This document shows, in pieces, positions 1 through 23,617 of a stretch of DNA of 64,000 nucleotides. This DNA is from an uncultured Actinomycetota bacterium (GTDB lineage: Bacteria; Actinomycetota; Acidimicrobiia; Acidimicrobiales; Bog-793). The notes under the pieces were generated by a model. That model ran no database searches. It worked only from the letters and a program-made list of their open reading frames with translations, and was not told where the DNA came from. Location of the stretch: the NCBI GenBank assembly GCA_963735115.1, contig CAVTJR010000003.1, positions 1,096,641 through 1,160,640 of the forward strand, given 5' to 3'. The position numbers were made by a program, and so were the translations under genes. Each line of letters begins with the position of its first letter. The first letter of the stretch is position 1.

Positions 1-27
1 GACCGAACCGCGCCCGTCTTCGCTCCC

Positions 28-273
28 ATGACCGAGCAAGACGCCGTTGTCGACATCCTCGCGCGAGAGACGGCCCTGAGCGCCTCGGATTTGTCGAGCG
101 AGTGGTCACTCATCGATCTCGGCGTGACCTCGTTCGTGATCGTGCGCGTCCTCGTCGCCTTCGAGGACCATTTCGAGACGGAATTCTCCGTCGAGCAGAT
201 GGAGGAAGTCGTGAGCACTCCGGTGGCTCAGCTGCCGGAGTTCGTCCGACGAGCGCTCGCAGTCGGGAGCTGA
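28..273 (+). CDS. stand-alone carrier protein (PCP/ACP-like)
   Basis: 81-aa ORF with a carrier-protein helix pattern. Candidate phosphopantetheine serine in LIDLGVTSF. Stop lies 3 nt before the adenylase start. Confidence 0.7.
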   Translation: MTEQDAVVDILARETALSASDLSSEWSLIDLGVTSFVIVRVLVAFEDHFETEFSVEQMEEVVSTPVAQLPEFVRRALAVGS

Positions 274-276
274 GCA

Positions 277-1821
277 GTGGACGTCCTCGAGCTGATCCTG
301 GATCGTGCGCGCACCAGCCCCGATCGTCCCGCCGCAAAGGACCGTTCGAGCGATATCACCTACGGCGAGCTGGAGCAGGCGGTCGCCGAGCTCGCGAGCG
401 GACTCGGCGAACAGGGTGTCCGGGAAGGCGATCGCGTGTGTCTCCACCTCCCGAATTCAGTCGAGTTCCTGGTGGCGGCGCTCGCCTGTATGTGGGTGGG
501 GGCGATCTTCGTGCCGCTGGCGACGACGGATCCGGCGCCCCGCCGGCGCGCCGTCGTCGAGAACTGCGAGCCGGCGCTCGTGCTCGCCGACGCCGAGATG
601 CTGTCGGTTGCAGAGCGCGATGGCGAGCGGCTCTACGAGGGACGCCTGGTCCTTCCCGTAACTGCCGTCAACCGACCTGCCGGTGCGGCGCCGGCCCGGG
701 CGGACGACGACGACCGGCCGGCGTACTGCATCTATACGTCGGGCACGACGGCTTTGCCGAAGGGGGTGCTCATCGGGCATCGCTCTTTTCTCTGCGCGGT
801 TCTCGCCGCCGCCGAGCTGCTCGAGCTCGACGAGACGACTCGTTCCCTCTGCGTCTCGTCGTTTCACTTCGACGGTTCCTACGGCACCTTGTTCCCCACA
901 CCCGTCGCTGGGGGGTCGCTCGTGATCCCGCGACGCGAGGCCTTGATGCTCCCGCGGCTCTTCTTCAGGACGGTGGCGGACGAGCAGGTGACTCATACGA
1001 GCATGTCCCCGACTTACCTCCGGCTCCTGCTGCCCAGCCGCCACCTGCCCGAGCTGGCCCGGACGCCGCTTCGTACCATGGCCTTCGGCGGGGACGCCCT
1101 CTTCGCCGACGATCTCGAGCGGCTCTGGGCTTCGGTGCCCAGCCTTCGCGTCTTCAACCGCTACGGGCCGACCGAGACCACGATCGCCGTGACCACGCAC
1201 GAGCTGACGCCGGAGATTGTGGCTCTCGGGGATCCGCTGCCCATCGGTCGGCCACACGCAGGCGTCACCTTCTGGCTCGTCGACGACGAGGGCAAGATCA
1301 TCGACCGCCCGGGCGACGTGGGCGAGCTCTACATCGGCGGCAATCATCTCATGATCGGGTACTGGCGCGAACCGGCACTCATGAGCGAGGTGATGCGCAC
1401 CGACGTCGTGCCGGGAGAGACGGTCTACCGGACCCGCGACCTGGTGTTTCGCGATGACTCAGGTAGCTATCACTACGTCGACAGGTCGGATCGAGTGGTG
1501 AAGCGCAGCGGCATGCGCATCTCCCTTGTCGAGATCACCGCCTCCTTGACGAGCCTGAGCAGCATCTCGAAGGCGCACTGCGTGGCCTACGACAAAGACG
1601 GTGGAGTCGGCATCGCGGCTTTTGTCGTGCCGATCGTCGCCATCACCGGCCCGGAGCTTCGCCATGCAGCCCGCGACCGCCTGCCGGCGACGATGCTGCC
1701 GGACGTCATCGAAGTCGTGGCCGACTTCCCCCTCACCGGCTCCAACAAGGTGGACGAGCGGGCGATGCTGCAAGCCGCCGGGTTGCAGGAGTTGGGCAAG
1801 GAGGGACTCCGGTCCGGCTGA
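277..1821 (+). CDS. stand-alone NRPS-type adenylation enzyme (ANL superfamily)
   Basis: Core motifs: A3 YTSGTTALPKGV, A4 FHFDGS, A5 NRYGPTETT, A7 YRTRDL, A8 YVDRSDRVVKRSGMRISLVEI, A10 PLTGSNKVD. Confidence 0.9.
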   Translation: MDVLELILDRARTSPDRPAAKDRSSDITYGELEQAVAELASGLGEQGVREGDRVCLHLPNSVEFLVAALACMWVGAIFVPLATTDPAPRRRAVVENCEPALVLADAEMLSVAERDGERLYEGRLVLPVTAVNRPAGAAPARADDDDRPAYCIYTSGTTALPKGVLIGHRSFLCAVLAAAELLELDETTRSLCVSSFHFDGSYGTLFPTPVAGGSLVIPRREALMLPRLFFRTVADEQVTHTSMSPTYLRLLLPSRHLPELARTPLRTMAFGGDALFADDLERLWASVPSLRVFNRYGPTETTIAVTTHELTPEIVALGDPLPIGRPHAGVTFWLVDDEGKIIDRPGDVGELYIGGNHLMIGYWREPALMSEVMRTDVVPGETVYRTRDLVFRDDSGSYHYVDRSDRVVKRSGMRISLVEITASLTSLSSISKAHCVAYDKDGGVGIAAFVVPIVAITGPELRHAARDRLPATMLPDVIEVVADFPLTGSNKVDERAMLQAAGLQELGKEGLRSG

Positions 1822-1870
1822 GGGCGCTGTCTGCGGCCCGTTGTCGCGGGTCGCGAAACCGCCGGCCGCA

Positions 1871-3682
1871 TCAGCGGAGAAAGTGCCGGCTGGCGTAGTC
1901 GACGATCAAGTCGGACACCTCGTCTCGATCCCTCGGATGGCGTAGGGCGTGATCGAGGGCGGAGATCATCTCGAGCTGCAGCTCTCCTGCGTTGGCGGAT
2001 CGCAGGCGAGGGTGGTCTGCCGCGTGCCGGAAGGGTCGTATCTCCTCAGAGCCGCAGATCAACAGCACGTTCGATCCAGCTAACACGAGGTCCGCCAGGT
2101 GCTCGCTCGGGCCGCTTTTCGGGCCTCCTGGGCGGGTTCCCAAACGCCACACAAGTGTGCGGTAGGGCCGGCCGAGTCGATCGAGGGCCGAGCGGATGCT
2201 TCGCCGCGCCCTCACCGTGGCCATCGGGTAGCGGGTGCCGATCCACCGGACGAGCGGAACCTGCTCCTCGAGCCATCGAATCGATGTCACTTTGTTCGTC
2301 GCCGTTGCGAGATGCGGTTCCGGGAGGAAGAACTTGCGTCGCGGATCGGCCGCACCGCCGTGCTCCATCTCCGGCGCCGGGAACGACACAGCCGGGTTCA
2401 GCGCGCAGACGCCCCGCGGCGACAGGATGGCCGCGGCCTCGAGTACGTGGTAGCCGCTCGAGCACAAGCCGAAGAGCACGACGTTCGAGGGTGCCTCTGG
2501 CGAGAGGGCGCGGGCGACGTCAACGACATCCTCGATCGCCGAGTAGGGGTAGACCCGCGGGGGCGTCGAGCCCCTCGGAGGGCTGTCGCCGACGCCGCTG
2601 AGATCCATGCGAACGCACCGGAGCCCCGCGGTGGCAAGGCGACGGCTGAGGTCGACCCAGAGTCGTCCGGGGCCGATGCGATGCTCGTTGGCGACGTTGA
2701 CGAACAGACACACCGGGCCGGTTGCGCCCTCCTTCGGCTCGGTCGATATCGAGAACAGCCCGAAGGGCCCGAGACGCACAGCACGCTCGACGACCGGCGT
2801 CGGCAGTCGGTCGCCGCTCTCGGACGCAGCCGCCCGATTGTGGCGCAAGGTGACGGCCACCTCGGCAGGCCGCGGCAGGGTGACCGAATGGCGGTCCTTT
2901 GGCATGACGTCGTCGATCCAGTCGACGATGGTTGCCAAGGCGCCGGCCGGCACGACCTGGAGCGGCGTTGGCATATCGAGGAGGTCGTCTTGGCCTGCCA
3001 CCTTGCGGTGCTCCACGTTCGGCAGGACGAGGCGGTCCACGAGGGTGCGCTCGGCCGGGTGGTCGACTCGAGTGAGCAGGAGCACCCGCTCCGCCAGAGT
3101 CGCCGTCGTCTCGTCGAATTCGAGCAGCGAGAGCTCACGCAGGATCTCTGGCGGGAGGAGGAAACCCGGAATGTCGTCTGGGGAGATGTTCGATTTACCC
3201 GCAACCTGGATGCGCAGGCTCAGCATGCGTTGCTCTCGAACGAACGACCGTCCGCTCGCGCACGGGTCCCACATGACGAGGGCTTCGAATGGTTCGAGGG
3301 CGCTGGTGAGTCCGGCAAGGAGGGCGCCGACGCGCATGCCCACGAGAGCGATGCGGGTCGCTCCCAACCCTCGCACGAAGTCAACGGCGTGGCGCACGTC
3401 ATCGAGCAACCCGATCGTGGCGTCCTGCTGATCGGTCCGGTCGAACGAGTCACCCGTCGAGCGGTAGTCGAAGCGGAGAGCGAGCAAGCCGGCGTCTGCG
3501 AGACTCCCGGCCAGGCGAGCGAATGTGGAGTATGCGCTCGTGTGCTCCCTGCCAAGCGGCGGGCAGAGAACGACGGCGCCGCGAACCTCGGCGCTGTTGG
3601 TATTGATGAGCCCGAACAGCGGTGATTCCTCCGGGCCGAACCAGGCCGACAGCGGCTGGTCAGGCGGGCGCTCGGACTTCAT
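1871..3682 (-). CDS. fused double alpha/beta-hydrolase-fold protein (N-half elbow GMRVG, C-half elbow GLCSS)
   Basis: 603 aa in two homologous halves (..LRFDYRSTGDS.. and ..VRMDLSGVGDS..). Nucleophile-elbow positions read directly from the translation. Lies 12 nt downstream of the ATP-grasp gene. Confidence 0.7.
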   Translation of the reverse strand: MKSERPPDQPLSAWFGPEESPLFGLINTNSAEVRGAVVLCPPLGREHTSAYSTFARLAGSLADAGLLALRFDYRSTGDSFDRTDQQDATIGLLDDVRHAVDFVRGLGATRIALVGMRVGALLAGLTSALEPFEALVMWDPCASGRSFVREQRMLSLRIQVAGKSNISPDDIPGFLLPPEILRELSLLEFDETTATLAERVLLLTRVDHPAERTLVDRLVLPNVEHRKVAGQDDLLDMPTPLQVVPAGALATIVDWIDDVMPKDRHSVTLPRPAEVAVTLRHNRAAASESGDRLPTPVVERAVRLGPFGLFSISTEPKEGATGPVCLFVNVANEHRIGPGRLWVDLSRRLATAGLRCVRMDLSGVGDSPPRGSTPPRVYPYSAIEDVVDVARALSPEAPSNVVLFGLCSSGYHVLEAAAILSPRGVCALNPAVSFPAPEMEHGGAADPRRKFFLPEPHLATATNKVTSIRWLEEQVPLVRWIGTRYPMATVRARRSIRSALDRLGRPYRTLVWRLGTRPGGPKSGPSEHLADLVLAGSNVLLICGSEEIRPFRHAADHPRLRSANAGELQLEMISALDHALRHPRDRDEVSDLIVDYASRHFLR

Positions 3683-3694
3683 ATTCGCCTGACG

Positions 3695-4972
3695 CTACTC
3701 ATAGACGACCGAGACCTCCTCACGCAGGCGTCGATCGAGAGCCCGAAGCTCCGCGACGTCGTCCACGGTGCCCTCGGCGGCAAAGACGAAGTCTCGATAG
3801 CCCTTGCGCCAATCGACCGACTGGCCAGGGCCGCGGTTGAGCAGCAGGTGCTCCACGCCCGGAAACGTCGCAGCCTCGTCGAATCCCTGCAGGCTGAGGA
3901 CACGGTGAGCGGACATGGGGGCCTGGATCACGGATCGAAACACGACTCGATCCATCTGCAGCAGCCTCTCGTGGGGAAGCTGCTCACCGAGTGCCAGTCG
4001 ACACCCCACATCGTAGAGGTCGAGCTTGCTCAGACGCCCGATCATCTCCGGTATTCCGCCGCCTGGTCGTCCGTTCACCTCGATGAGGCGAGGGCCGCTC
4101 GGCGCCAGCTTGATCTCCGTGTGCAGGCAGCCGCTTTCTATCTCGAGTGCCCTGGCTGCATCGACCGCCAGTTGGAGAACGGCGGCTCCATCCTCGTCGG
4201 AGAGCTCTGCCGGCATGAAATTGCCGGTCTCGCGAAACGGCTCGACGAAGCGGAAACGCCCCGTCATGGCGACGTTGCTCACGCGCCCGCCGCTCACGTA
4301 GCTCTCGACCGAGACGACTGGGGCGATCTGCTCGTCTCGTGACGGAGCTGCCGGTATGAACTCCTCCACCAGCATGGCTTCGCCGATCCCGTCTCGAGAG
4401 AGCTGCGACAGCGCCTCGAGGAGATGAGGGAACGACGGCACCGAGACGACGTTTTCGCTGCCCGTTCCGTGCCGTGGCTTGAGCACCGCCGGGAAGGAGA
4501 TGCGGCTCTCGATGTCGGCCAGGGCAGCGCCGTCGCCCGCCGGGGGAACCTCGGCGTAGCGAGGGACGGCAACGCCGCCTTGGTGGAGGGCGCGCCGCTG
4601 CACGAATTTGTCGACGAGCCGCTCCGCCACCTTCGGGGTATGAAAGGGCAGCTCGAGCTCCGCGGCGATCTCCGCCAGCCTGAGCATGCCGGCGTCCTGG
4701 AAGGTCACGATGCCGTCGGGTCTGTGGCGTCTGATGGCGGTGGCTGCCTGCGAAGTAGGCAGGCCTTCCAGGTGAACGACGTCCCCGAGCTTGCGCAGCA
4801 TCGCCGCGTGCACGGCGGCGACGTGGCGGTGCACCGGAGGGGTGGAATCGACCAGCCAGAGCAGCTCGTACCGCCCGGCCGCGAGGGGTGCGAGCGCCAT
4901 GGGGGACAGCTCCAACGGACTCGTCAGCACGGCCATGAGCGGCCGGCTGCGCTGCGGGCGAGCGGGCATCAT
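3695..4972 (-). CDS. ATP-grasp enzyme, L-amino-acid-ligase-like
   Basis: ATP-grasp hallmarks LVEEFI and HTEIKLAPSGPRLIEVNGRPGGG. ORF is open to 5203, but the first ~77 codons have poor third-position GC. Start placed at ATGATG 4972/4969; 4936 is an alternative. Confidence 0.75.
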   Translation of the reverse strand: MMPARPQRSRPLMAVLTSPLELSPMALAPLAAGRYELLWLVDSTPPVHRHVAAVHAAMLRKLGDVVHLEGLPTSQAATAIRRHRPDGIVTFQDAGMLRLAEIAAELELPFHTPKVAERLVDKFVQRRALHQGGVAVPRYAEVPPAGDGAALADIESRISFPAVLKPRHGTGSENVVSVPSFPHLLEALSQLSRDGIGEAMLVEEFIPAAPSRDEQIAPVVSVESYVSGGRVSNVAMTGRFRFVEPFRETGNFMPAELSDEDGAAVLQLAVDAARALEIESGCLHTEIKLAPSGPRLIEVNGRPGGGIPEMIGRLSKLDLYDVGCRLALGEQLPHERLLQMDRVVFRSVIQAPMSAHRVLSLQGFDEAATFPGVEHLLLNRGPGQSVDWRKGYRDFVFAAEGTVDDVAELRALDRRLREEVSVVYE

Positions 4973-5165
4973 CGCAGGTCCTGGCCGAAGGTTGCGGCCG
5001 TATCCGCCGACACGCCCGTCCGCCCGGGAGTCAGAGTCGCCTCGCCTGGGTGGCAAGGCAGCACCCTCAGGAGCGAGTCCAGCGGGCCGTGAAGTCACCC
5101 TCACCTCGGTGGCGCTTCCAGCACTCGGGCGGAGCCGGCTCCCACCCCCCGACTCACTTCGCGAG

Positions 5166-6941
5166 TCATCCGAGCAGCTCCTCGACGCAGCGTTGAGCGT
5201 CAAGGAAGACGCGTAGTCTGCTCTTCGGCGAGGGGAGATAGTGCGTGAAGTACCGCACGCCCTCCGTCAGCGCTCCCAGCAGGGAAAGATGCTGCTGCAC
5301 GCGCCCGTCTCGGTCGATGGGGTGGAAGTCCCTCGTGAGGGCCACGCTGCCGACGGGGGTGTCACCGTACTTGAACTGCTGCAGCCGTCCCTGCTGATAC
5401 AGGTTCGTCAGCAGCGGCGATGAGGAGCGATGCAGGGTCGGGTCCTCAAGATACCCCTGTACCAGCACGTCCACCGGTGCGGAGAAGGGCGTGTCGAGCT
5501 CCCTCGAACGGACCGTCCGACCGGAGTGTGACGTCGTCAGTCGAGGAGCAGGGCCGAAGGGGGCTTTCACGACCCCTGCGTCCATCAGCGCCAGCAGCTG
5601 CTGGGAGCGGATCGCCGGAGGTCCCGCCACGAGGCGGCTCACCTTGGAGCGGATGTTCGACTGGAAGTCGAGGTACGACTCGAGCGAGAGCCCGCCGAAC
5701 TCGATGACGGTTCGCATGGCGTCGCGCTGGAAGCGGAGCACCTCAGAAGCGGCCTTGACGGCGCTCGCCGGACCCTTCAGCGCCTCGTCCAGGTCCGTTT
5801 CGACCATGGCGTACACGCGGTCCTGGTAGTCCGTCGCCGACACGAAGCTGTCCTCGGGAGCGAAGAAATTTCGGCTGGCGTCGAACGAGCCGTAGCGCGC
5901 CGCGTAAGGCGCCACGACCGACTCGAAGTCGTTGATCGAGGACTGCTCCAGCCGGGCACGCACCTCTTTGGCGGCGTCCGGGCCTGCGGCCAGAGCAGCC
6001 GAGTGCAGGTAGTACCGGGCCTGCATCTCTGCGAAGATGAGGGGAAGCATCGTCGTCCGGAGATCGACGCGGCCGGCATCGGCCCGAATGGCGGCGACGG
6101 CCTCCTCGGTGCAGATGACCGAGGCATAGTCGTCGGTCTCGTCCAGAGCTTCGACGGCCTTGGCACAGTATGGGAATCCGCTTCGTGAGAACACGTAGAT
6201 GCGCGGCTCACGTCCGCTCGCCCGGTATCGCAAGCGATCGCCGCGCGGCACGAAGGAGCCGCCGTTGCCGAGCGTGAGCGCCGTGATGGCGTCAGTGGCA
6301 ACAAGGCCCATACCGACGATGCCGACAGAGGCGGTCGAGGGGATGGCGTCGACGTAGGGCGTGACGGGATACGGCCTCACCAGGTGCTCGGGATGATCGA
6401 GGTTGCCCGTGTGACCGGTCGTGAGGATGACGTGGTTGACGGCAAGGACCTCGCCGGTGTTGAGATACACGTGCTCGAGTCCGTCCGGTTGGCTGACGAT
6501 GTCGACGGCGAGCGCTCGGTGCGGGACGATCTCGAGCGGCCACGGCGCGTCCTCCACGAGCGTTTCGAAGAACCATTGCAGGTAAGCCCCGAGGACGCGC
6601 CGAGGCAGGTAGTCGTGGGGCGTGACCTCGCGTCCCGAGCGCGAGACGCGGCAACTGTCGCCGTTCCAGCGGTAGCCGACCTGCTTCGTCCATTCGTACA
6701 GGCCGACGCCGTAGCGGGGGGAGGCTCCCTCGTCGTCCCACGGGTAGAGCGAGAGCTGGCCGCACGGCGTGTTCAGGAGGAGGTACTCGGGCTCGTCCAA
6801 GGCGTACACGCCGGGTCCGGCCGTGCCGACCTCTACGACATGGACTCGAGTCGGGCACCGCTCAGTGCGAACAGCGTCCGCCAGACGCTCCAGCACGCAC
6901 AGCCCCCAGGCGCCGGCTCCGACGAGCGCGACCTCATTCAT
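5166..6941 (-). CDS. FAD/NAD(P)-binding oxidoreductase (YdhS/NAD_binding_9-like)
   Basis: Start placed at MNEVALVGAGAWGLCVLERL (GxGxxG dinucleotide fold). ORF is open to 7052, but that extension covers a structured intergenic hairpin. Confidence 0.7.
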   Translation of the reverse strand: MNEVALVGAGAWGLCVLERLADAVRTERCPTRVHVVEVGTAGPGVYALDEPEYLLLNTPCGQLSLYPWDDEGASPRYGVGLYEWTKQVGYRWNGDSCRVSRSGREVTPHDYLPRRVLGAYLQWFFETLVEDAPWPLEIVPHRALAVDIVSQPDGLEHVYLNTGEVLAVNHVILTTGHTGNLDHPEHLVRPYPVTPYVDAIPSTASVGIVGMGLVATDAITALTLGNGGSFVPRGDRLRYRASGREPRIYVFSRSGFPYCAKAVEALDETDDYASVICTEEAVAAIRADAGRVDLRTTMLPLIFAEMQARYYLHSAALAAGPDAAKEVRARLEQSSINDFESVVAPYAARYGSFDASRNFFAPEDSFVSATDYQDRVYAMVETDLDEALKGPASAVKAASEVLRFQRDAMRTVIEFGGLSLESYLDFQSNIRSKVSRLVAGPPAIRSQQLLALMDAGVVKAPFGPAPRLTTSHSGRTVRSRELDTPFSAPVDVLVQGYLEDPTLHRSSSPLLTNLYQQGRLQQFKYGDTPVGSVALTRDFHPIDRDGRVQQHLSLLGALTEGVRYFTHYLPSPKSRLRVFLDAQRCVEELLG

Positions 6942-6997
6942 GGTGCGCAATGGCCTGACCGCTCGTGTGCTCCCCGCCGACCCACTCTTATACGCTA

Positions 6998-7062
6998 CCG
7001 CCACGGGGCTCTGCCCATTTTCAAGTGGGCAGCGTGGCGGTGTTTCAGGCATCGCAGATGCC
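6998..7062. other. interrupted 15-bp hairpin (6998-7040) plus 6-bp hairpin (7048-7062) in the divergent intergenic region
   Basis: CCGCCACG/CGTGGCGG outer stem and CTGCCCA/TGGGCAG inner stem with a 5-nt bulge. Second hairpin is GGCATC-gca-GATGCC. Read directly from the sequence. Confidence 0.5.
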
Positions 7063-7132
7063 AGGGAGACTGCTCGTGAGCCACGCGAGGGGTCGGATCG
7101 AGGGTTGAATCAACAGGGTCACGCGGCTCTCT

Positions 7133-8245
7133 ATGCTGGTCACGGGTCCCACTCGTTCAGTGGAGGTGTTACATCCCAGTCTTTATCGACTCGGCGGAGC
7201 CCAGGTCGTCCCAAGCGAACGGCACGGGGGGAGCGCGCGTGGTCGCGGCGGCGGTCAGCCGGCGCTCGAGATCGCGATCGTCAACAACATGCCTGACGCC
7301 GCCTTTGCTGACACTGAAGATCAGTTCACGACCTTGCTCAACGAAGCCGCCGGTCATCTCGAGCTGCGCGTCGGGCTCTATAGCCTGCCCGGGCTACGGC
7401 GCAACGAGGGCACCGCGAGTTACATCGCGGCGAACTATCGAAGCATCGAGCAGCTGTTCGACCGGCGAGTCGACGCCGCCATCGTGACGGGGACCGAGCC
7501 GCTCGCCGGGCGCCTGCCGGACGAGCCCTATTGGGCTGCTTTGACGGAGCTGATCAGTTGGGCAGAGGTATCGACCACCTCTACCGTCTTGTCCTGCTTG
7601 GCAGCTCACGCTGCGGTTCTGCTCTTCGACGGTATCGAGCGGGAGCGACTTCCGCAGAAGTGCTCCGGTGTCTTCGCTCATGAGTCGCTCACGTCGCACC
7701 CTCTCGTCGAGGGCCTGCGTGGACCTGTATTCGTGCCCCACTCGCGCCTCAACGACGTCCCGGGTCACCACCTGTCGGACGGCTATGCAAGCTTGCTCGG
7801 ATCACCCGAGATCAGCTGGACCGTGTTGGCACGGGAGAGCGGCAATTGCCTGTTCATGTTCGTGCAGGGCCACCCCGAGTACTGGACGACGAGCCTGTTG
7901 CGGGAGTACAAGCGCGATTTACAGCGCTACCTCCGAGGCGAGCGTGACTCGTCGCCCCCCGTCCCGCTCCATTACCTCGACGAAGAAGGAGAGCGCCTGC
8001 TCACTCGATTCGCCACCGAGGCACGGGCGCGTCCCTCGTCGGCGGACCCGATGGCGGGCTTCCCTTTCGATGAGGTCAAGGAACGCGTGGTAAATACGTG
8101 GCGGCCCCACGGGGCGCGCTTGTACAAGAACTGGATCCAGGAGATCCTGCGGCGGAGGCAGGACGGCCCCCCAGGCAACGGCGAGGCGCCGGCGCCGGAT
8201 CGGGCCGTCGACGAGCAAGGAACGAGGTCTGTTGGTGCGGGATGA
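7133..8245 (+). CDS. metA: MetA-family homoserine O-acyltransferase
   Basis: IAIVNNMPD (cf. ILNLMPKK), IVTGTEPL, catalytic-Cys region VLSCLAAHAA, HSRLND, GHPEYW. N-terminal ~45 aa and exact start are uncertain. Confidence 0.8.
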   Translation: MLVTGPTRSVEVLHPSLYRLGGAQVVPSERHGGSARGRGGGQPALEIAIVNNMPDAAFADTEDQFTTLLNEAAGHLELRVGLYSLPGLRRNEGTASYIAANYRSIEQLFDRRVDAAIVTGTEPLAGRLPDEPYWAALTELISWAEVSTTSTVLSCLAAHAAVLLFDGIERERLPQKCSGVFAHESLTSHPLVEGLRGPVFVPHSRLNDVPGHHLSDGYASLLGSPEISWTVLARESGNCLFMFVQGHPEYWTTSLLREYKRDLQRYLRGERDSSPPVPLHYLDEEGERLLTRFATEARARPSSADPMAGFPFDEVKERVVNTWRPHGARLYKNWIQEILRRRQDGPPGNGEAPAPDRAVDEQGTRSVGAG

Positions 8246-9515
8246 GACGATTGCTCTCCACGGCGGGTACACACCTGATTCGACGAAGGCCGTGGCGGTG
8301 CCTATCTATCAGACCGTCGCCCATGAGTTCGACGACGCCGATCATGCGGCAGCCGTGTTCGACATGGACATCCCGGGGTTCCACTACAACCGGCTGAACA
8401 ACCCAACCAACCAGGTTCTGGAGCATCGCCTTGCAGCCCTTGAACTCGGCGTCGGCGCCCTCACGCTCAGCTCGGGCACAGCGGCCGTGCTGTACTCGTT
8501 GCAGAATCTCGCCGGCCTCGGTGACAACATCGTCTCCGCCCCGCAGTTGTACGGAACGACCTACACCCTGTTCGTGCACATCCTGCCTCAGCAGGGTCTC
8601 GAGGTTCGCTTGGCGGCGGACGACACCCCAGCCGCCATGGAAGCCCTCATCGACGACCGCACGAAGGCGATCTTCTGCGAGAGCATCGGCAACCCCGCCG
8701 GCAACGTCGTCGATCTCGAGGCCGTAGCGGCGCTCGCCCACTTCCACGGCATACCGCTCATCGTCGACAACACGGTGGCCACGCCGATGATGATCAAGCC
8801 CGTCGAGCACGGCGCCGACATCGTCGTGCACTCGCTGACGAAGTTCGTCGGCGGCCACGGCACGACGCTGGCGGGAGGCATCGTCGACAGCGGCAAGTTC
8901 CCGTGGGCCGACCACCCGGACAGGTTCCCCATGTTCTCCCGACCGGAACCCTCCTTCCACGGGGTCGTATACCCAGAGCGCTTCGGTGACGCCGCCTATA
9001 TCGTGCGCTGCAGAACGGTGGGTCTGCGAAACGCCGGGGCGACACTGTCGCCGTTCAGCGCCTTTTTGGTATTGCAGGGTCTCGAGACCATGTCGGTCCG
9101 ACTCGACCGCCACGAGGTGAACGCCCGAGCTGTTGCCGCCTACCTCGCCGAGGATCGGCGCGTCTCCTGGGTGGACTTCGCCGGTTTCCCCGATCACCCC
9201 TATCACGAGCTTTCTGAGCGCTATCTGAAGGGGCGGTGCTCGTCGCTGTTCACCTTCGGTGTCGTCGGTGGCTATGACGCCGGCTTGCGGTTCTTCAACT
9301 CGGTGAAGCTCTTCAAGCGACTCGTCAACCTGGGGGACGCCAAGTCGCTCGTGAGCCATCCGGCCTCGACCACCCACCGACAGCTGACAGCCGAGGACCT
9401 GAAGGTCGTAGGCGTCACGCCGGACATGATCCGACTGTCGGTTGGGATCGAGCACATCGACGACATCATCGAAGACATCGACCAAGCGCTGAGTGCCGCC
9501 TGCGGCGCCGAGTAA
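8232..9515 (+). CDS. metY: O-acetylhomoserine sulfhydrylase / aminocarboxypropyltransferase (PLP, Cys/Met-metabolism family)
   Basis: 427 aa with PLP-lysine motif HSLTKFVGGHGT. N-terminus TIALHGGY..PIYQT. Overlaps the metA stop by 14 nt. Confidence 0.9.
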   Translation: MVRDETIALHGGYTPDSTKAVAVPIYQTVAHEFDDADHAAAVFDMDIPGFHYNRLNNPTNQVLEHRLAALELGVGALTLSSGTAAVLYSLQNLAGLGDNIVSAPQLYGTTYTLFVHILPQQGLEVRLAADDTPAAMEALIDDRTKAIFCESIGNPAGNVVDLEAVAALAHFHGIPLIVDNTVATPMMIKPVEHGADIVVHSLTKFVGGHGTTLAGGIVDSGKFPWADHPDRFPMFSRPEPSFHGVVYPERFGDAAYIVRCRTVGLRNAGATLSPFSAFLVLQGLETMSVRLDRHEVNARAVAAYLAEDRRVSWVDFAGFPDHPYHELSERYLKGRCSSLFTFGVVGGYDAGLRFFNSVKLFKRLVNLGDAKSLVSHPASTTHRQLTAEDLKVVGVTPDMIRLSVGIEHIDDIIEDIDQALSAACGAE

Positions 9516-9559
9516 CATCTGGCGGTGTTCGGACATTGCTGCAGTCAAAGGAGAGTTCG

Positions 9560-9724
9560 TTGCACCATGCCATCGAGTGCATCGGCGACGATCCTCGGAC
9601 GCGGTCGGTGGTTCTGCGGTTGATCGGAGGCGCCTCAGCACTCACTGAGCCGCTCCACTTGGGGGTCCGGTTCGCCGCCCGCCTTGACGACGCCGGCGCT
9701 ACGGCGGACCTGGCGGGATCATGA
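9560..9724 (+). CDS. possible 54-codon coupling ORF or crotonase-like remnant
   Basis: AAGGAG 6 nt upstream of TTG 9560. Stop TGA overlaps the ATG of the next carrier-protein gene (ATGA). Third-position GC is high. No recognisable full domain. Confidence 0.25.
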   Translation: MHHAIECIGDDPRTRSVVLRLIGGASALTEPLHLGVRFAARLDDAGATADLAGS

Positions 9725-10014
9725 CCTTGGGAACGGAGCCATCGATGACCGACGAGATTCGCCGGGTGGTGGCCCAGCACGGTCGCCTCTCGGTCCCGAT
9801 GTCGCAAGTGGCGGACGACGACGACCTCTACTTCGCCGGCATGACCTCACACGCGAGCGTCAGCATGCTGATCGCCCTGGAGGAAGCCTTCGGACTGGAG
9901 TTCCCAGAGGAAATGCTGCGCCAGAGCACGTTTCAGTCGGTCAATTCGATCGCGGCAGCGCTCGACGTTCTGATCGAGGACAAAAAGGCCGCTGAGCTTG
10001 GCCCACGAACCTGA
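9721..10014 (+). CDS. stand-alone acyl/aminoacyl carrier protein
   Basis: 97 aa with DLYFAGMTSHASVSMLIALEEAFGLEF (Ppant-serine context). Stop overlaps the next gene. Confidence 0.75.
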   Translation: MTLGTEPSMTDEIRRVVAQHGRLSVPMSQVADDDDLYFAGMTSHASVSMLIALEEAFGLEFPEEMLRQSTFQSVNSIAAALDVLIEDKKAAELGPRT

Positions 10015-10915
10015 GGAGGATTTTCGCTCGGGGCTGATGACCGCCGGCCTGCTCATCGCCACCGAGGTCGATGGGATCTACCTCCGGTCCGGGAACTTCG
10101 AGAGCGTGGCACGCGCCATCGATGTCCTCGTGAGCGCGGCCGGATCGGATCAGAACGCTGAGGTCTTGCATCTGCCGGCAGTCATGCCGCGTAGCGTCCT
10201 CGAGCAGTCCGCCTACATCCGGGCGTTCCCGGACCTCGTCGGCTCGGTCAACACATTCGAGGGTAATGACGCCCTGCACATCGAGATCCTGCGCCGCCTC
10301 GAACGCGGCGAGGACTGGGCAGAGCTCTTCGGCCGCTCCGACGTGGTGCTCTGTTCGGCGGCTTGTCACCTGGTCTACCCGACGTGTCGTGGCCGGTTGC
10401 CCGAGGGTGGTCGACGCTTCGAGGTCTTCGGTCAGTGCTTCCGGCACGAGCCGAGCCTCGATCCGGCGCGGATGCAGGCCTTTCGCATGCACGAATTCGT
10501 CTACGTGGGCGACGCCGAGGGCGCCGTGGCCCATCGGGATGCCTGGCTCGAGCGGGCCGCCCAGCTGCTCGGCGGGCTCGGGCTTCCCGTCACGGCGGTG
10601 CTGGCGAGTGACCCCTTCTTCGGCCGGGCGGGCAAGCTGCTCTCGGCGAATCAACGGGCGGAAGCCTTGAAGCACGAGGTCGTGACCTCGGTGCAGCCGG
10701 GAGAGGGGCCGGTCGCCGTCGCGTCGTCCAACTGCCATCTCGACCACTTCGGCCGTGCTTTCGGCATCGAGAGCGCGGACGGAACCGTCGCCCATAGCGC
10801 CTGTGTCGGCTTTGGGACCGAGCGCATCGTGCTGGCGCTGCTGGCAGCGCACGGGCTCGACCCGGTGTGCTGGCCGTCCAACGTGCGCGATCAGCTGTGG
10901 CCGTCGAGGACTTGA
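9998..10915 (+). CDS. class-II aaRS-like amino acid:[carrier-protein] ligase (truncated SerRS-type catalytic core)
   Basis: 305 aa with motif-2-like CFRHEPS and motif-3-like VGFGTERIVLALL. No tRNA-binding domain. Cys/Glu/Cys candidates for the Zn site. Adjacent to a carrier protein. Alternative start ATG 10037. Confidence 0.75.
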   Translation: MAHEPEEDFRSGLMTAGLLIATEVDGIYLRSGNFESVARAIDVLVSAAGSDQNAEVLHLPAVMPRSVLEQSAYIRAFPDLVGSVNTFEGNDALHIEILRRLERGEDWAELFGRSDVVLCSAACHLVYPTCRGRLPEGGRRFEVFGQCFRHEPSLDPARMQAFRMHEFVYVGDAEGAVAHRDAWLERAAQLLGGLGLPVTAVLASDPFFGRAGKLLSANQRAEALKHEVVTSVQPGEGPVAVASSNCHLDHFGRAFGIESADGTVAHSACVGFGTERIVLALLAAHGLDPVCWPSNVRDQLWPSRT

Positions 10916-10933
10916 GGGCGGCGACCGCCCCGC

Positions 10934-13732
10934 TCAGCCGAGCGCCTTCGCCAGGGCCGTCACGATCGGCGTTCCCAGGCCAGTAGCCATGTCGTAATGC
11001 TTCGTGGCTGGGTAGAGGCCTCCGTTCGTCGTCGTGTAGTCGTTGTTGCCGACCTTGACGTCGTTGACGACGGCCTTGCCTTCGGCCACCAGCTTGTAGA
11101 GGGCAGGGTTCAAGAAGCCCAGCTTGTGGACCTTGCCCTTGTAGGCGTCGAGGAGGGCGGTCAATGCCGCCCAGAGGGGCGTGGCGGCACTCGTGCCGCC
11201 GACGACCGTCCACTTGCCGCCGAAGACGATGACGTAGCCATGGGACGGGTCGGCGCTGGCGGAGACGTCGGGGAGCTCTCGACAGAGCGTTCTGCCCGTG
11301 GCGCCGCAGGGGACCCCCGAACTGAGCGAGCTCACGACGCCGGGGCCGCGCTGGTACTTGGGCATCGTCCACCAGGAAGAGATGCCGCCCGTGCCGGCGC
11401 CCTCGGCGAACAGGGGCTCGTCCCAGACCGACTGCGTGGGCGCAGGGCCGAGCTTGGTGAGATCGGTGCCGCCCACGCCGGTCACGAACGGCTGCTCGGA
11501 CGGATCCTCCACGCTCAAGAAGAGCGGCATCCAGACGAAGCCGCCGGCTGCATCGGCAACCCAGGCATAGTCCAAGAGCGGGTCCGTGGCGACGGCGTAA
11601 GGGTCGGTGATACCCGTAATGAGCCTCGTCACCTTGTTCGTCCCGCCGGAGATGACCGCTACGCCGGCTCCGCTGCCGTCGGAGCCTTCAGCTGTGACCA
11701 GGACACCGCTCCCGTTCGGATCGACGGCCAGCGACGTGGGGATGACCAACCCACTTAGCGTCGCTGTCGCCACGAAGTCGCCGGTGCTCGCCTCCAGCAC
11801 CGTCACGGTGTCGCTCTCGGCGTTGCCGATGTAGAGCTTGTTCGAGGAGGCGTTGACGGCGAGCCCGTACGGCTCCTCGCCGACCGATACCTCGGCCAGC
11901 GTCAGCGAGGTGGGGCAGCCGCTCGTGGTGGTGGCGTCACATGCCGCGCCGCTGAACTCGCCAACTTCGTCGTCGCCGAAGTCGGTGAGGAACACCTGGT
12001 TGGTGGAAGCGTCCACCGCCACGTCTGCCGGCTCGTCGCCGCCGTATGCACCAACGATGGTGAGCGCCGACTCGTCGATGACGCCGATGTCGTCAATGCC
12101 GGCAAGGGCCACGTAGGCGGTGCCGGTGGCGCTGTCGACGGCGATACCGATGGGCTCGCTACCGGGGTCGTTGATGACCGTCATGGGGGTGGCGCTGCAG
12201 CCGGACTGGTTGGCGCTGTCGCACGTCGCCCCGTCGATCTCGGCGACGATGCCAAGGGCGTCTTCCGAGACCCAGAGTTGGTTCGTGGTCGGATCCACGG
12301 CGAGGCCCTCTGGCTCGGTCGTCGATCCGAGAGCGATCGTCCCGACGGTTTCGAGCGTGGCCTCGTTGGCGACGGTGATGTCCCCGGTGATCGAATTGGC
12401 GAAGTAAACGGTCTGGGTCGCCGGGTCCACGGCGACGGCGTCAGGCCCAGGAGGCTGGCTGATCTCGGCCGGCGAACCGTTCGCCATGCAGCCTTCCGAG
12501 CCCACGTCACCGTCGGCCACGAAGGTGGACTGCCCCTGGATGGCGGCCTCCTTGAAGATGGAGTTCTCCGCCTTGATGACTGACTCGGGGACGAAGACGT
12601 CACAGCCGAAGGGGGCGGTCGACCAGCTCGAGGAGATGACCTGTGCCTTGTCCTGAGTGACGATCTTGTCGTAGCCATCTGTCGGGCCCGTACCGCTCCC
12701 GATCGTCTCGTAGACCCGTACAGATGCCTTGGGGGCGAGGCCGATGACGGTTTCGATGTCGAGGGCCGCCTCAGGAGAGAAGTCGGCGTCCTTGCTTCCG
12801 CCGTCGACGGACACGTTCGTGAGCGGGACATGGGTGTGGTAGCAGGACTGGAACTTCGCGATGTCGCTCTTGGAGTACGTCTGCTCCTCGAACAGGGCGA
12901 TGGTGACGCCTTTGCCGAGATCGCCCTTGGCGAAGACCCCGTCGAAGGAGTACGCCTGCGCGAGCTGCGTCTCGGTCCAGCCGGAGAACTCCTTGGCCAC
13001 CGCCTTGGCTGTCGCGCAGGCGATGGGGCCGCTCGTGGGGACGACGGAGGGAACGGCCGTCAGTCGTGGGTGACGGTGGGCGGCGATCGGACCGGGCGCA
13101 CGTGAGCTGACGGTGTCGAGGCCGATGATCCCCTGCACGTCTCGGGCGATGGCGCTCGGCAGCGTGGGGGCGTCGGTGTTCACGATGGCCGTGGCCGGCA
13201 CGGTGCCGGCCGGCTGGCGGTAGAGGCGCAGTGAGACGTGCAGCGCTCTTTCCACGAGCCCGACGTTGGCGCTCACCGGGATGATCAGGTGGTCAGGGGT
13301 GATGGCGCCAGGCCGCAGGCCGGCCTGGCGAAGCACGGCCGTGACCGCCGAGATGGTGGCAGGCGTAGGCCCGAAGACGGAGGCGAATTGACCGCGGGCA
13401 AGGAAGTGGCCATAGAGGGGGTTGCCCGGGGTGGAGACGGCCGTGGCGAACGAGGTCATGGCCGCCGGGTTGCGCGGCTCGAGCACGACGTCGATGTGCA
13501 GTGGGGTAGCCGCCCGGGCGGCACCGAGCGGGTGGTCGGCCAGCGGGACGGCGGCGGCCTTGCCCACAGGGGCCAGGTACGACGTGAGCACGGCATGCAG
13601 GCGACCGGCGGACGCCGCTGCCTGGTCGCCGGCTCCAGCCGTGGCGAGAGCGACCAAAGCGGAGCACACGAGCAACGTCCCACCTAGGCGGAACCGAAAG
13701 TTCCGACGGCTCGTCCGGCGAGTGACCATCAT
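10934..13732 (-). CDS. secreted sedolisin (S53) peptidase with pro-kumamolisin-type propeptide and an internal 6-7-blade YVTN-like beta-propeller
   Basis: Signal peptide and activation domain. Catalytic blocks are AALDIETVIGLAPKASVRVYE, ISSSWS, ADGDVGSEGC, then about 330 aa of 40-50-aa repeats (DPxT..LYV.., ..P.GLAV). The core resumes at PFVTGVGGT and VVGGTSAATPLWAAL. Confidence 0.85.
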   Translation of the reverse strand: MMVTRRTSRRNFRFRLGGTLLVCSALVALATAGAGDQAAASAGRLHAVLTSYLAPVGKAAAVPLADHPLGAARAATPLHIDVVLEPRNPAAMTSFATAVSTPGNPLYGHFLARGQFASVFGPTPATISAVTAVLRQAGLRPGAITPDHLIIPVSANVGLVERALHVSLRLYRQPAGTVPATAIVNTDAPTLPSAIARDVQGIIGLDTVSSRAPGPIAAHRHPRLTAVPSVVPTSGPIACATAKAVAKEFSGWTETQLAQAYSFDGVFAKGDLGKGVTIALFEEQTYSKSDIAKFQSCYHTHVPLTNVSVDGGSKDADFSPEAALDIETVIGLAPKASVRVYETIGSGTGPTDGYDKIVTQDKAQVISSSWSTAPFGCDVFVPESVIKAENSIFKEAAIQGQSTFVADGDVGSEGCMANGSPAEISQPPGPDAVAVDPATQTVYFANSITGDITVANEATLETVGTIALGSTTEPEGLAVDPTTNQLWVSEDALGIVAEIDGATCDSANQSGCSATPMTVINDPGSEPIGIAVDSATGTAYVALAGIDDIGVIDESALTIVGAYGGDEPADVAVDASTNQVFLTDFGDDEVGEFSGAACDATTTSGCPTSLTLAEVSVGEEPYGLAVNASSNKLYIGNAESDTVTVLEASTGDFVATATLSGLVIPTSLAVDPNGSGVLVTAEGSDGSGAGVAVISGGTNKVTRLITGITDPYAVATDPLLDYAWVADAAGGFVWMPLFLSVEDPSEQPFVTGVGGTDLTKLGPAPTQSVWDEPLFAEGAGTGGISSWWTMPKYQRGPGVVSSLSSGVPCGATGRTLCRELPDVSASADPSHGYVIVFGGKWTVVGGTSAATPLWAALTALLDAYKGKVHKLGFLNPALYKLVAEGKAVVNDVKVGNNDYTTTNGGLYPATKHYDMATGLGTPIVTALAKALG

Positions 13733-13836
13733 GATTTTCCCCTCCTCGTCCGGGGTCCCCGCCCGGCGCCTCCGCTACCGTAGCCAACCCCGTTCGTCGC
13801 CGCAGGGGAACCGCCCGGTGGCGCCGCTCGGCCGGC

Positions 13837-13925
13837 TGCCTGCTCGCGATGATCCCCGGAGCGACAACGATTCCGGCCGAGTGCCTGCTCGGGACGATCC
13901 CCGGACGCGACAACGCCTCCGGCGA
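13837..13925. repeat. two imperfect ~45-bp direct repeats upstream of the S53 peptidase gene
   Basis: tgcctgctcgcgatgatccccggagcgacaacgattccggc versus tgcctgctcgggacgatccccggacgcgacaacgcctccggc. Each has CCGGA..TCCGG arms. Coordinates are approximate to a few nt. Confidence 0.55.
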
Positions 13926-14073
13926 AGGGGGGTGCCGGAGGCGGTCGCAACGCTTTGGAACAGGCTTCGTAAATTGTCGGCCGGCTGTCGGCTGGACTTG
14001 AGTCTTTGCCGAAAGTTTCTTCTCGCTTCCCACGCCGCCTGCGCCCGGCCGGTGGCGCCCGCTGCGGGCGCCG

Positions 14074-14235
14074 TCAGCCGGCGGCTTTGCGGGGACCGTG
14101 AGCCTGGTCGGGAGCTACCAACCAGGCGTACGCCTCGGCGAGGGTGAGGAGCGTCTCGGACGTCATGTTCCGCGAGGTGATCGCCTCCAGCATCCGCTCT
14201 CGCAGCGCGTCGACGATCTGATCTTGAGTGGGCAT
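14074..14235 (-). CDS. small hypothetical protein (53 aa)
   Basis: ATG 14235 preceded by AGGAGA at 6 nt. Helical-looking sequence MPTQDQIVDALRERMLEAI... No family recognised. Confidence 0.4.
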   Translation of the reverse strand: MPTQDQIVDALRERMLEAITSRNMTSETLLTLAEAYAWLVAPDQAHGPRKAAG

Positions 14236-14275
14236 CTCGTTCTCCTGTGGGCGGTACCGGTGCCCCCGTCCTAGC

Positions 14276-19470: not shown

Positions 19471-19664
19471 TCTCGAGTGTTCCCTCCGCGTGAGCCAGCC
19501 CTTGCGAATACTCGGCAACCGTAGCTGGAGGGTCAGCCCATCGCTCTTGTCCACCGCTGGTGCCCACGGCGCAACGACCGAGCGAGGGGAGAGGACGTGT
19601 CAACAAGCCGGGCCGAGCCCGCCTCTAGCCATGCCGGCTTCGCCTCCACCGATAGTCTCTCAGC

Positions 19665-20642: not shown

Positions 20643-20809
20643 GGTAACGGGGGCGATGGCGCTTGCCGGCGTCGGCGAGCCGGCGCGCCGTTGCCCTCTC
20701 GGGGATCCGGCCCCGGCGTGGGCGCCCGCTCCCTCCAGGTTGCTTTCAGCGGACGCGGCGCTGTACGCGGCATGATCGCGAGAGCGCAGCGCCGATCGGA
20801 GGAGATCGA

Positions 20810-22174: not shown

Positions 22175-22184
22175 GGGCCGTGTC

Positions 22185-23552: not shown

Positions 23553-23617
23553 CCCGACCGGTCGGGCCGAGGGGCGGCGGCACACTCGCGGATCACGACG
23601 ACAAGGAGCCAGGCACA

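Follow-up and report, generated by a model that had tools for sequence, protein, structure and literature searches.

What does a bacterium make with two carrier proteins, each placed beside its own amino-acid-activating enzyme, when no condensation domain accompanies them? The question is raised by nine protein-coding genes at positions 28 to 10,915 of the DNA considered here, a 64,000-nucleotide stretch, called the window throughout, from contig CAVTJR010000003.1 of an uncultured Actinomycetota bacterium of the order Acidimicrobiales (Bog-793; assembly GCA_963735115.1). These genes encode two carrier proteins (CP1 and CP2), a stand-alone nonribosomal peptide synthetase (NRPS)-type adenylation domain (A-domain, or adenylase), an aa:CP ligase, short for amino acid:[carrier protein] ligase, related to class-II aminoacyl-tRNA synthetases (aaRS), an ATP-grasp ligase, a flavin monooxygenase (the flavoenzyme), a MetA-like and a MetY-like enzyme, and a fused double alpha/beta-hydrolase.

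An earlier interpretation, made from the letters alone and referred to here as the sequence-only reading, had taken this set for a self-standing pathway free of condensation (C) domains. Its central observation, namely two unrelated loading enzymes in the company of an ATP-grasp ligase, has stood, and what has to be revised is the setting: the locus is a variant of a cassette family, and it may well be a module for tailoring a glycan. The cluster itself is real, widespread and uncharacterized, and a literature search gave no characterized cluster with this gene set, as had been supposed; nor did the literature on DUF1839, PF13454/YdhS and the exosortase-associated cassette offer a characterized match.

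The question has a wider bearing because of the aa:CP ligase. Enzymes of this kind, tRNA-synthetase homologues that load carrier proteins, were reportedly discovered in 2010, and Mocibob and colleagues are said to have described, in 2010 and 2013, Bll0957 and Bll6282 of Bradyrhizobium and Atu2573 of Agrobacterium. A review of 2022 still called their biological role unknown.

Gene Content and Organization

Gene families were assigned with Pfam and NCBIfam profiles, with bit scores compared to the curated cut-offs, and the nine-gene locus is confirmed, each gene having the coordinates and the family first read from the sequence; the same genes are present in the public calls on 14 contigs that carry an identical adenylase. 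The G+C content of the window is 67-70%. On the forward strand, CP1 (28-273; 81 aa), a free-standing carrier protein (PF00550, E = 4e-8), is separated by 3 nt from the A-domain (277-1821; 514 aa), which matches the AMP-binding family with E = 1e-73 and TIGR01733 with 310 bits against a cut-off of 317. The reverse strand carries the fused double hydrolase (1871-3682; 603 aa), whose N-terminal half resembles hydr2_PEP and whose C-terminal half resembles hydr1_PEP, then, at a distance of 12 nt, the ATP-grasp ligase of the L-amino-acid-ligase type (3695-4972; 425 aa; PF13535, 31 bits, cut-off 27), and finally the flavoenzyme, assigned as a class-B flavin monooxygenase (5166-6941; 591 aa; PF13454, E = 6e-31). 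The forward strand resumes with the MetA-like homoserine O-acyltransferase of the HTS family (7133-8245; PF04204, E = 8e-60), which overlaps by 14 nt the gene of the MetY-like pyridoxal phosphate (PLP) enzyme (8232-9515; PF01053, E = 2e-120), a member of the O-acyl-homoserine gamma-replacement (aminocarboxypropyl-transferase) family. The last two genes overlap by 17 nt and encode CP2, a PRK07081-type carrier protein (9745-10014, 89 aa, or from 9721, 97 aa; NF005480, 98.7 bits, cut-off 72), and the aa:CP ligase, a homologue of the class-II aaRS (atypical SerRS) core (9998-10915; 305 aa; NF005479, 393 bits, cut-off 357). The spacings and overlaps thus match the tight operon junctions described earlier.

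The public gene calls give alternatives for the start of the MetA-like gene, which may lie at 7133, 7172 or 7289, and codon-position GC favors 4972 as the start of the ATP-grasp gene and 6941 as that of the flavoenzyme, in agreement with the shorter starts chosen from the sequence; the longer open reading frame (ORF) starts at 5203 and 7052 were discarded, since codon-position GC speaks against both. Scans for promoters and terminators returned counts at the chance level and were uninformative.

No C-domain family was found in scans of ten window and five left-flank proteins, and among the same 15 proteins no C domains linked to A or T domains were seen, as a modular NRPS assembly line would have. 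Nor did a tblastn search with 12 phosphopantetheinyl transferases (PPTases), run on the window and on the adjoining 9.7 kb of left flank, give a significant match, unlike most related loci, in which a PPTase is present. Both absences had been read correctly. Two others require qualification: the lack of a thioesterase holds less well, because the fused hydrolase shares the thioesterase fold class and is likely the off-loading enzyme, and the lack of a transporter is confined to the window, about 5 kb to the left of which there is a flippase-like gene.

Distribution and Co-conservation

To place the locus among its relatives, an alignment of the aa:CP ligase was used as query with one genome per species, and the best 80 of 591 relatives were retrieved with 10 kb flanks; these ligase-seeded loci were compared with the window proteins by tblastn, and their families were defined by de novo clustering and Pfam. 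A CP2 homologue stands beside the ligase in 74 of the 80 and the double hydrolase occurs in 39, a co-conservation that bears out the view that the set is not a row of chance neighbors. The hydrolase-bearing loci span Actinomycetota, Alpha- and Beta-/Gammaproteobacteria, Myxococcales, Planctomycetes, Gemmatimonadota and Holophagaceae.

The canonical form of this cassette comprises a PPTase, a carrier protein, an ACAD-like protein, the ligase, a DUF1839 protein, a GH2-like protein and the double hydrolase, and an annotated example is found on plasmid p2 of Azospirillum brasilense Sp7. The window departs from it. Of the 80 ligase-seeded loci, 61 have an ACAD-like gene, a DUF1839 gene or both, 7 have the trio made up of the flavoenzyme and the MetA-like and MetY-like enzymes, and no locus has both sets; neither the ACAD-like nor the DUF1839 gene is in the window or in any of the 7 loci with the trio. 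The double hydrolase of the canonical cassette is retained at 1871-3682, with a second copy left of the window. The window is, then, a variant in which the flavoenzyme, MetA-like, MetY-like and ATP-grasp genes replace the ACAD-like, DUF1839 and GH2-like ones. In a neighbor-joining tree the ligases of the variant mostly form a single clade, with those of loci L051 and L055 apart. In these two loci, and in L099/L100, the gene order is rearranged and the clustering is kept.

The trio is conserved as a separate module. Flavoenzyme homologues with 52-57% identity are abundant and adjoin HTS and MetY genes even where there is no aaRS-like ligase. A metagenome scan seeded on the flavoenzyme alone gave 80 loci, 18 of which extend 6 kb or more to either side (the well-flanked loci). 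MetA-like and MetY-like genes are present in 17 of the 18, a carrier-protein loader of any kind in 15, the ATP-grasp gene in 14, and the double hydrolase, a carrier protein and a PPTase in 12 each. As to the loaders, an A-domain about 50% identical to that of the window occurs in 11 well-flanked loci, the aaRS-like ligase in 6 and both in 2. Because trio, loaders and hydrolase cluster across loci in spite of rearranged gene order, chance adjacency is rejected. The close homologues that carry a name belong to Acidimicrobiales, and the related metagenome-assembled genomes (MAGs) come from peat and palsa samples.

Loci of the flavoenzyme type also have recurrent extra genes, encoding Amidohydro_3, an aldo-keto reductase, a luciferase-like oxidoreductase, and FrhB-like and GNAT proteins. 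In the A-domain-type relatives, Amidohydro_3 adjoins the A-domain or is fused to it (L092, L096 and L140-L180; 1103 aa in L092). Genes for Amidohydro_3, the aldo-keto reductase and the luciferase-like protein were found neither in the window nor in its left flank.

The Amino-Acid-Modifying Enzymes

The flavoenzyme aligns over residues 4-567 with the L-aspartate N-hydroxylase of Streptomyces sp. V2 (PDB 8CP2; E = 1.4e-48), which belongs to the CreE/FzmM type of class-B monooxygenases (PMC10404684). The window enzyme retains the catalytic Asn62 and Arg409/412/416, and the aspartate-binding residues of the entry chamber are altered: Arg13 is replaced by Trp, Arg276 by Asp or Glu, and Asn413 by Asp. 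Within the subfamily of the window enzyme, Trp12 and Asp407 are invariant and position 271 is either Asp or Glu. In the aspartate enzyme, the mutation N413E eliminates the hydroxylation of aspartate (PMC10404684). Given these replacements, aspartate is not the expected substrate, and the protein would be an N-oxygenase for a different, non-acidic one; it is, in other words, a homologue of the aspartate N-hydroxylases that appears to lie outside their functional group. No lyase-family match, such as the nitrosuccinate lyase partner CreD/FzmL would give, was found among those proteins of the locus and its surroundings that were scanned.

The MetA-like protein, when aligned with E. coli MetA (PDB 7CBE), shows the catalytic Cys and the motif GHPEY in place, and its scores are below the NCBIfam equivalog cut-offs (332 versus 358 bits for NF003776, 136 versus 495 and 127 versus 460 for others). 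The MetY-like protein passes the OAH/OAS sulfhydrylase subfamily model TIGR01326 (575 bits, cut-off 495) and is likewise below all equivalog cut-offs, the best being 632 versus 790 bits. Its matches include PDB 8SF5 (E = 2e-139) and FUB7 (E = 6e-123), and since FUB7, which forms C-C bonds, is nearly as close as the sulfhydrylases, the nucleophile cannot be read from the sequence. A riboswitch upstream of the metA-like gene was considered and dismissed, because an Rfam search of positions 1-11500 (E <= 1) gave no match, hence no S-adenosylmethionine (SAM) riboswitch ahead of that gene. In the related locus L089 the stop codon of MetY overlaps the start of the ligase by 4 nt. A purely housekeeping role of the MetA/MetY pair is unlikely. 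The ATP-grasp protein, finally, has L-amino-acid ligases as its closest solved relatives (PDB 3VOT, E = 1e-12).

Carrier Proteins and Their Loading Enzymes

Both carrier proteins have a predicted phosphopantetheine attachment site at Ser35, within the motif G-V-T-S in CP1 and G-M-T-S in CP2; in each, the residue preceding the Ser is Thr, versus the usual Asp. The best NCBIfam match of CP1, a weak one, is to the PRK07081 model, the one that CP2 passes.

The ligase aligns with the Bll0957 entries of the PDB, 3MEY and 4H2W, over residues 24-300 (E = 1e-64 to 1e-67) and consists of the catalytic core of a class-II aaRS, the tRNA-binding domain being absent. Cys123, Glu151 and Cys269 are invariant among 21 relatives and align with the zinc ligands reported in Mocibob's work of 2010. 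With its NF005479 (PRK07080) score above the equivalog cut-off, and with the gene of the cognate CP2, which passes NF005480, directly adjacent, the protein is a true aa:CP ligase by family, and ATP-dependent aminoacylation of the holo-carrier protein is its predicted activity.

The adenylase retains the Asp that binds the alpha-amino group, within an FDGS motif, and its closest solved homologues are the A-domains of LgrA. By motif alignment in GrsA numbering, its specificity code would presumably read D-G-G-S-M-F-R-I-A-K. We know of no code that it matches, and we make no substrate call. Three weak matches in the ligase-seeded loci had suggested that CP1 and the A-domain were an add-on specific to the window, a notion refuted by A-domain homologues with 44-54% identity in 24 of the 80 flavoenzyme-seeded loci.

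The adenylase is the presumed loader of CP1. This pairing, and that of CP2 with the ligase, are proposed from the adjacency of the genes and from the swapping of loaders in relatives. L099/L100 are close to the window, with a ligase 80% and a hydrolase 75% identical, and their CP1 orthologue (70%) adjoins the hydrolase, the A-domain being missing. There, a second aaRS-like ligase, about 47% identical to the first, stands beside it, where nothing is encoded in the window. This paralogue is found at 1463-2371 (+) of L100 and at 10950-11858 (-) of L087, convergent with the first ligase. Conversely, 9 of the 11 well-flanked loci with an A-domain homologue are without the aaRS-like ligase, and a CP2-type carrier protein and a PPTase are found near many flavoenzyme-seeded loci. 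Since the swap in L099/L100, the second ligase of L087 and the loci with an A-domain alone point the same way, the system can evidently use loaders of the aaRS-like and the A-domain kind interchangeably, and the swap also supports the sequence-only reading in its claim that each carrier protein has a loader of its own, from an unrelated superfamily.

The Fused Double Hydrolase

The two halves of the hydrolase differ at the nucleophile elbow. The N-terminal domain has Arg117, within G-x-R-x-G (residues 115-119), at the usual position of the catalytic Ser, and the C-terminal domain has Cys407, within G-x-C-x-G, together with a conserved His578. Arg117 is invariant in an alignment of 42 database sequences and at least 90% conserved in 31 locus-derived ones; His578 is invariant and Cys407 at least 90% conserved, and the overall pattern of Arg, Cys and His holds in both sets. 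The same substitution of Arg for Ser at the N-terminal elbow is seen in the second hydrolase copy of the genome, at 8083-9645 of the left flank (L001). These residues suggest that the N-terminal domain may be a ligand-binding pseudo-enzyme domain.

A Cys nucleophile suits thioester exchange, so that exchange with a carrier protein is plausible, and the fused hydrolase probably acts as a thioesterase or transferase. Its sequence has no N-terminal hydrophobic segment. Its AlphaFold2 model, a confident one (pLDDT 83, pTM 0.86), compared with the PDB by Foldseek, matched generic single-domain esterases and lipases, and no two-domain homologue or polyhydroxyalkanoate (PHA) synthase was among the matches.

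Natural fusions, confirmed by Pfam, tell with which partners the protein may work. In P0265 and P0269 the double hydrolase is fused to a glycosyltransferase of family GT4, and in P0320 a carrier protein is fused to its N-terminus, and the trio and a PPTase are present in the P0320 locus as well. The three fusion proteins come from loci L097 and L098, the former lying amid genes for transposases and integrases.

Connection with Polysaccharide Genes

The suspicion that the locus extends past the window edge proved right: it continues leftward, with another hydrolase copy and a Wzx/Wzy polysaccharide cluster. This left flank was taken as 9.7 kb (L001) from a 257 kb MAG contig that encodes the adenylase (GCA_052148235.1). 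Directly left of CP1, and divergent from it, is the second fused hydrolase of the hydr2/hydr1 type, followed further left by beta-helix, flippase-like, Wzz-like, Wzy_C and GT4 genes.

A similar association is seen elsewhere. L087 and L096, which share a contig of 3.68 Mb and are separated by about 8 kb, have orthologues of the beta-helix, Wzy, Wzz-like and flippase genes between the end with the ATP-grasp and hydrolase genes and the end with those of the flavoenzyme, MetA, MetY, carrier protein and ligase. Glycosyltransferase or Bac_transf genes adjoin L089, L051, L055, L099 and L155, and in L091 the genes of the flavoenzyme, HTS, MetY, CapK_C, GT2, GT4, a FemAB-like protein and a further GT4 follow one another on a single strand. 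On a Tsukamurella plasmid, the ligase, an acyl carrier protein and a PPTase lie within an annotated exopolysaccharide cluster. The top Pfam families among 148 proteins flanking the flavoenzyme-seeded loci are GT2, sugar epimerase/dehydratase, GT1/GT4, the FemAB-like Acetyltransf_6 and DegT. The GH2-like gene of the canonical cassette and the hydrolase-GT4 fusions P0265 and P0269 were also counted for the glycan link.

Proposed Pathway and Alternatives

Taking these findings together, we propose, with confidence somewhat short of even, that the locus is a cytoplasmic, carrier-protein-dependent module by which amino acids are tailored for the neighboring Wzx/Wzy polysaccharide locus. The pathway probably yields an unusual amino acid derived from homoserine. 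In the initial step the flavoenzyme would hydroxylate an amine on nitrogen with NADPH and O2, the substrate being other than aspartate and, to judge from the acidic pocket, perhaps a neutral or a basic amino acid. The MetA-like enzyme would O-acylate homoserine, whose 3-amino-3-carboxypropyl unit the MetY-like enzyme would then pass on; sulfide and the hydroxylamine of the initial step would both fit as the nucleophile, the latter giving a non-proteinogenic amino acid with an N-O or N-C linkage. The Zn-dependent aa:CP ligase would attach an amino acid as a thioester to holo-CP2, as would the A-domain to holo-CP1, a loading chemistry that is experimentally established for homologues of the two loaders only. 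The ATP-grasp ligase may form an amide, which would either make a dipeptide or link an amino acid with a sugar acid. At the end, Cys407 could take the aminoacyl or peptidyl group off the carrier protein by transthioesterification and pass it to a sugar, at one of its hydroxyl or amino groups, on a nucleotide- or lipid-linked repeat unit prior to export; since carrier-protein chemistry is cytoplasmic, transfer is expected before the repeat unit is flipped. A more specific combination, in which the trio produces a hitherto undescribed amino acid that derives from homoserine and is oxygenated on nitrogen (with, say, an aminooxy N-O-C or an N-hydroxy-N-alkyl linkage), this is loaded by the interchangeable aaRS-like ligase or A-domain, and a new double-hydrolase transferase with a Cys nucleophile installs it on the repeat unit, is unlikely to be right in every part.

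Several points weigh against the tailoring of a polysaccharide. GT4 or Bac_transf genes lie within 10 kb in only 30 of the 80 ligase-seeded loci, a raw count, and one common architecture, seen in L008-L011 and L105-L133, is flanked by unrelated genes. Every chemical step at the locus is one that we infer from families, conserved residues, fusions and neighborhoods, and since the fold search returned generic esterases only, the fused enzyme may be a hydrolase rather than a transferase. The MetA/MetY pair may also serve methionine synthesis, and the amidohydrolase, aldo-keto reductase, luciferase-like and GNAT genes of the loci with an A-domain resemble a small-molecule pathway.

The last point leads to an alternative that we regard as possible, if rather doubtful, in which the locus is a self-contained pathway to a diffusible small molecule, an amino-acid-derived N-O, N-N or hydroxamate product that would be assembled on the carrier proteins in the absence of C domains and released by the Cys hydrolase, and the polysaccharide genes are incidental neighbors. 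An N-hydroxylase homologue, a PLP enzyme for gamma-replacement, an ATP-grasp ligase, an A-domain, carrier proteins and a PPTase are a set typical of specialized metabolism, to which the A-domain-type relatives add the four enzymes just named and sometimes a cytochrome P450, and many related loci have no glycosyltransferases nearby. Precedents exist in valanimycin biosynthesis (VlmL/VlmA) and in the hydrazine synthetases, which use an N-hydroxylase and an activated aminoacyl donor, and in the D-cycloserine pathway, where an O-acyltransferase is combined with a PLP replacement enzyme and an enzyme of the ATP-grasp type. Yet no exporter, regulator or resistance gene is among the top Pfam families of the 148 flanking proteins, the hydrolase does occur fused to GT4, the system in L087/L096 is interspersed with genes for polysaccharide synthesis, and in L091 trio and glycosyltransferases share one strand. 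The same GT4 fusions indicate sugars where the Cys hydrolase might otherwise be considered a polymerase for a poly(amino acid) or polyester, similar to PHA synthase, or an AlmEFG-like transferase to a lipid or protein. This we deem improbable, since no PHA synthase appeared among the sequence and fold search matches and the neighborhoods revealed no genes for lipid A or for lipid modification, although PhaC and the Alm system are fitting precedents and the conserved Cys in a lipase-box-like G-x-C-x-G with a conserved His, the carrier-protein-hydrolase fusion P0320, and the presence of two fused hydrolases alongside two carrier proteins in the genome are all consistent with it.

It is very improbable that the arrangement is in part a matter of chance or of lineage, with ordinary methionine genes lying next to an aa:CP-ligase cassette rather than forming one pathway with it. 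The MetY-like protein is about as near to the solved sulfhydrylases as an ordinary MetY would be, and the catalytic residues of the MetA-like protein are intact. But the trio occurs with a carrier-protein loader in 15 of the 18 well-flanked loci, the clusters persist through changes of gene order, and beside the ligase the trio and the ACAD/DUF1839 pair exclude each other, with zero overlap in 68 loci. The overlap of MetY and ligase in L089, the empty Rfam search and the scores of both enzymes, under every NCBIfam equivalog cut-off, argue in the same direction.

Relationship to Known Systems

The tailoring of a polysaccharide by carrier-bound amino acids, as proposed here, has parallels in several known systems, none of which accounts for the whole set. 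The nearest relatives of the ligase are the Bll0957-type enzymes, with which it shares the equivalog score, the alignment over the full catalytic core and the residues aligned with the zinc site, as well as a gene that overlaps that of a PRK07081-type carrier protein. What has been characterized for the Bll0957 type is the loading only, of Gly or Ala onto the carrier protein, and unlike the usual aa:CP cassettes, the window places an N-hydroxylase homologue, MetA-like and MetY-like enzymes and an ATP-grasp ligase next to it. The canonical cassette has the papain-like DUF1839 where the window would use an alpha/beta-hydrolase for transfer.

DltABCD attaches D-alanine to teichoic acids and AlmEFG attaches glycine to the lipid A of Vibrio cholerae. 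As in these systems, a free-standing adenylation enzyme serves a small carrier protein, a separate transferase is presumed, and there is no C domain. Unlike them, the locus gave no DltB (MBOAT), DltD or AlmG homologue in the scans, and it has an aaRS-like loader, a fused Arg/Cys double hydrolase as the presumed transferase, and the amino-acid-modifying trio; the adenylase, moreover, is far under the DltA cut-offs (216 versus 476 and 206 versus 560 bits). In the butirosin pathway (BtrI, J, K, O, V, H and G), 4-amino-2-hydroxybutyrate (AHBA) is built by ATP-grasp loading and tailoring on the carrier protein, and a Cys-type acyltransferase hands it to an amino sugar. Tethering of an amino acid to a free-standing carrier protein, followed by a Cys-type transfer to a sugar, is what we presume for the window too, with the difference that loading would be by aaRS-like and A-domain enzymes, transfer by an alpha/beta-hydrolase, and the presumed acceptor a polysaccharide rather than an aminoglycoside. 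The logic of the locus is thus carrier-protein-dependent, condensation-free amino-acid transfer, and the proteins that define the Dlt, Alm and butirosin systems are not present.

For the modifying enzymes the parallels are of another kind. The flavoenzyme has full-length homology to CreE/FzmM and differs in its entry chamber and in the missing match to a lyase partner. MetY-family enzymes take part in specialized metabolism as RtxA (rhizobitoxine) and LolC (loline), and as with FUB7 of fusaric acid biosynthesis, a donor of the O-acyl-homoserine type and a PLP replacement enzyme are found here beside tailoring enzymes. The cycloserine enzymes DcsE, DcsD and DcsG offer a parallel that would be one carbon longer in the window, with acyltransferase, PLP replacement, ATP-grasp and N-hydroxylation, and that is an analogy, not a homology of the whole set. 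The FUB7, RtxA, LolC and Dcs pathways are not known to use carrier proteins, an aaRS-like ligase or a fused hydrolase, whereas the window has all three.

The halves of both hydrolases of the system are closest to hydr2_PEP and hydr1_PEP of the cassette associated with exosortase A (XrtA/PEP-CTERM; acyl-CoA ligase TIGR03098, hydrolase 1 TIGR03100, hydrolase 2 TIGR03101), itself uncharacterized, which likewise pairs an adenylate-forming ligase with hydrolases. Unlike in that cassette, the hydrolases are fused here, and the scores are far under its curated cut-offs (73 versus 203 and 67 versus 168 bits; 108 and 58 bits for the second copy). No PEP-CTERM gene was seen, nor any exosortase gene in the 74 kb examined.

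The Spacer and the Right Flank

The sequence-only reading had listed a mini-ORF (9536-9724) between the MetY-like gene and CP2, which we do not retain. It has no family match and no homologous call in relatives, and it is uncalled at all six places shown for contigs with an identical adenylase; the spacers of L087 and L089 are too short to hold it, and that of L100 has a non-homologous call of 53 aa with just an 8-residue stretch in common. The ideas that it is a genuine gene or a remnant of a PPTase were ruled out, since the ORF is unconserved and the tblastn search was null. What is conserved, within the mini-ORF, is a 25-nt element on the forward strand (9575-9599), GAGTGCATCGGCGACGATCCTCGGA, which was recognized by comparison with L099/L100, where it has one mismatch while the remaining spacer has diverged. 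It has no Rfam match, and the spacer gives no folding signal (z = -0.28); the element could be a regulatory site.

To the right of position 10915 are genes of secreted proteases and lectin-like proteins, unrelated to the locus. This block of about 8.7 kb (10934-19554) encodes a protein with a sedolisin pro-domain and NHL repeats, an S15/S9-type peptidase, and a protein with Ig-like and lectin domains, and it stands between the ligase and a GGDEF gene. It is taken for a lineage-specific insertion, because in L089/L090 and L007 there is almost nothing between the ligase and the GGDEF gene after it. Synteny resumes from 19665-24382 onward with genes for GAF-GGDEF and glutamine-synthetase-like proteins, an aldehyde dehydrogenase and a short-chain dehydrogenase/reductase (with a GATase in relatives), a block that resembles gamma-glutamyl-polyamine catabolism. 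Further right are a CDP-alcohol phosphatidyltransferase (26822-27637) and an 830-aa fusion of NTP-transferase, hexapeptide and phosphomutase domains (27740-30232).

Significance

If the proposed role is true, the tailoring of polysaccharides would be the first physiological role for the aa:CP ligases and would define a new class of glycan decoration. A question that is now 15 years old becomes testable, by way of the conserved downstream Arg/Cys hydrolase, its fusions to carrier proteins and glycosyltransferases, and the placement of the genes among those of polysaccharide synthesis. The exchange between an aaRS-like ligase and an A-domain of the ANL superfamily is a rare non-orthologous replacement, which joins amino-acid activation of the ribosomal and of the non-ribosomal type, and the N-hydroxylase homologue with its redesigned chamber, next to homoserine activation, points to an undescribed amino-acid chemistry. 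Finally, the cluster is common in MAGs of Acidimicrobiales from peat and soil, and its product may therefore matter for the surface chemistry of these abundant uncultured bacteria.

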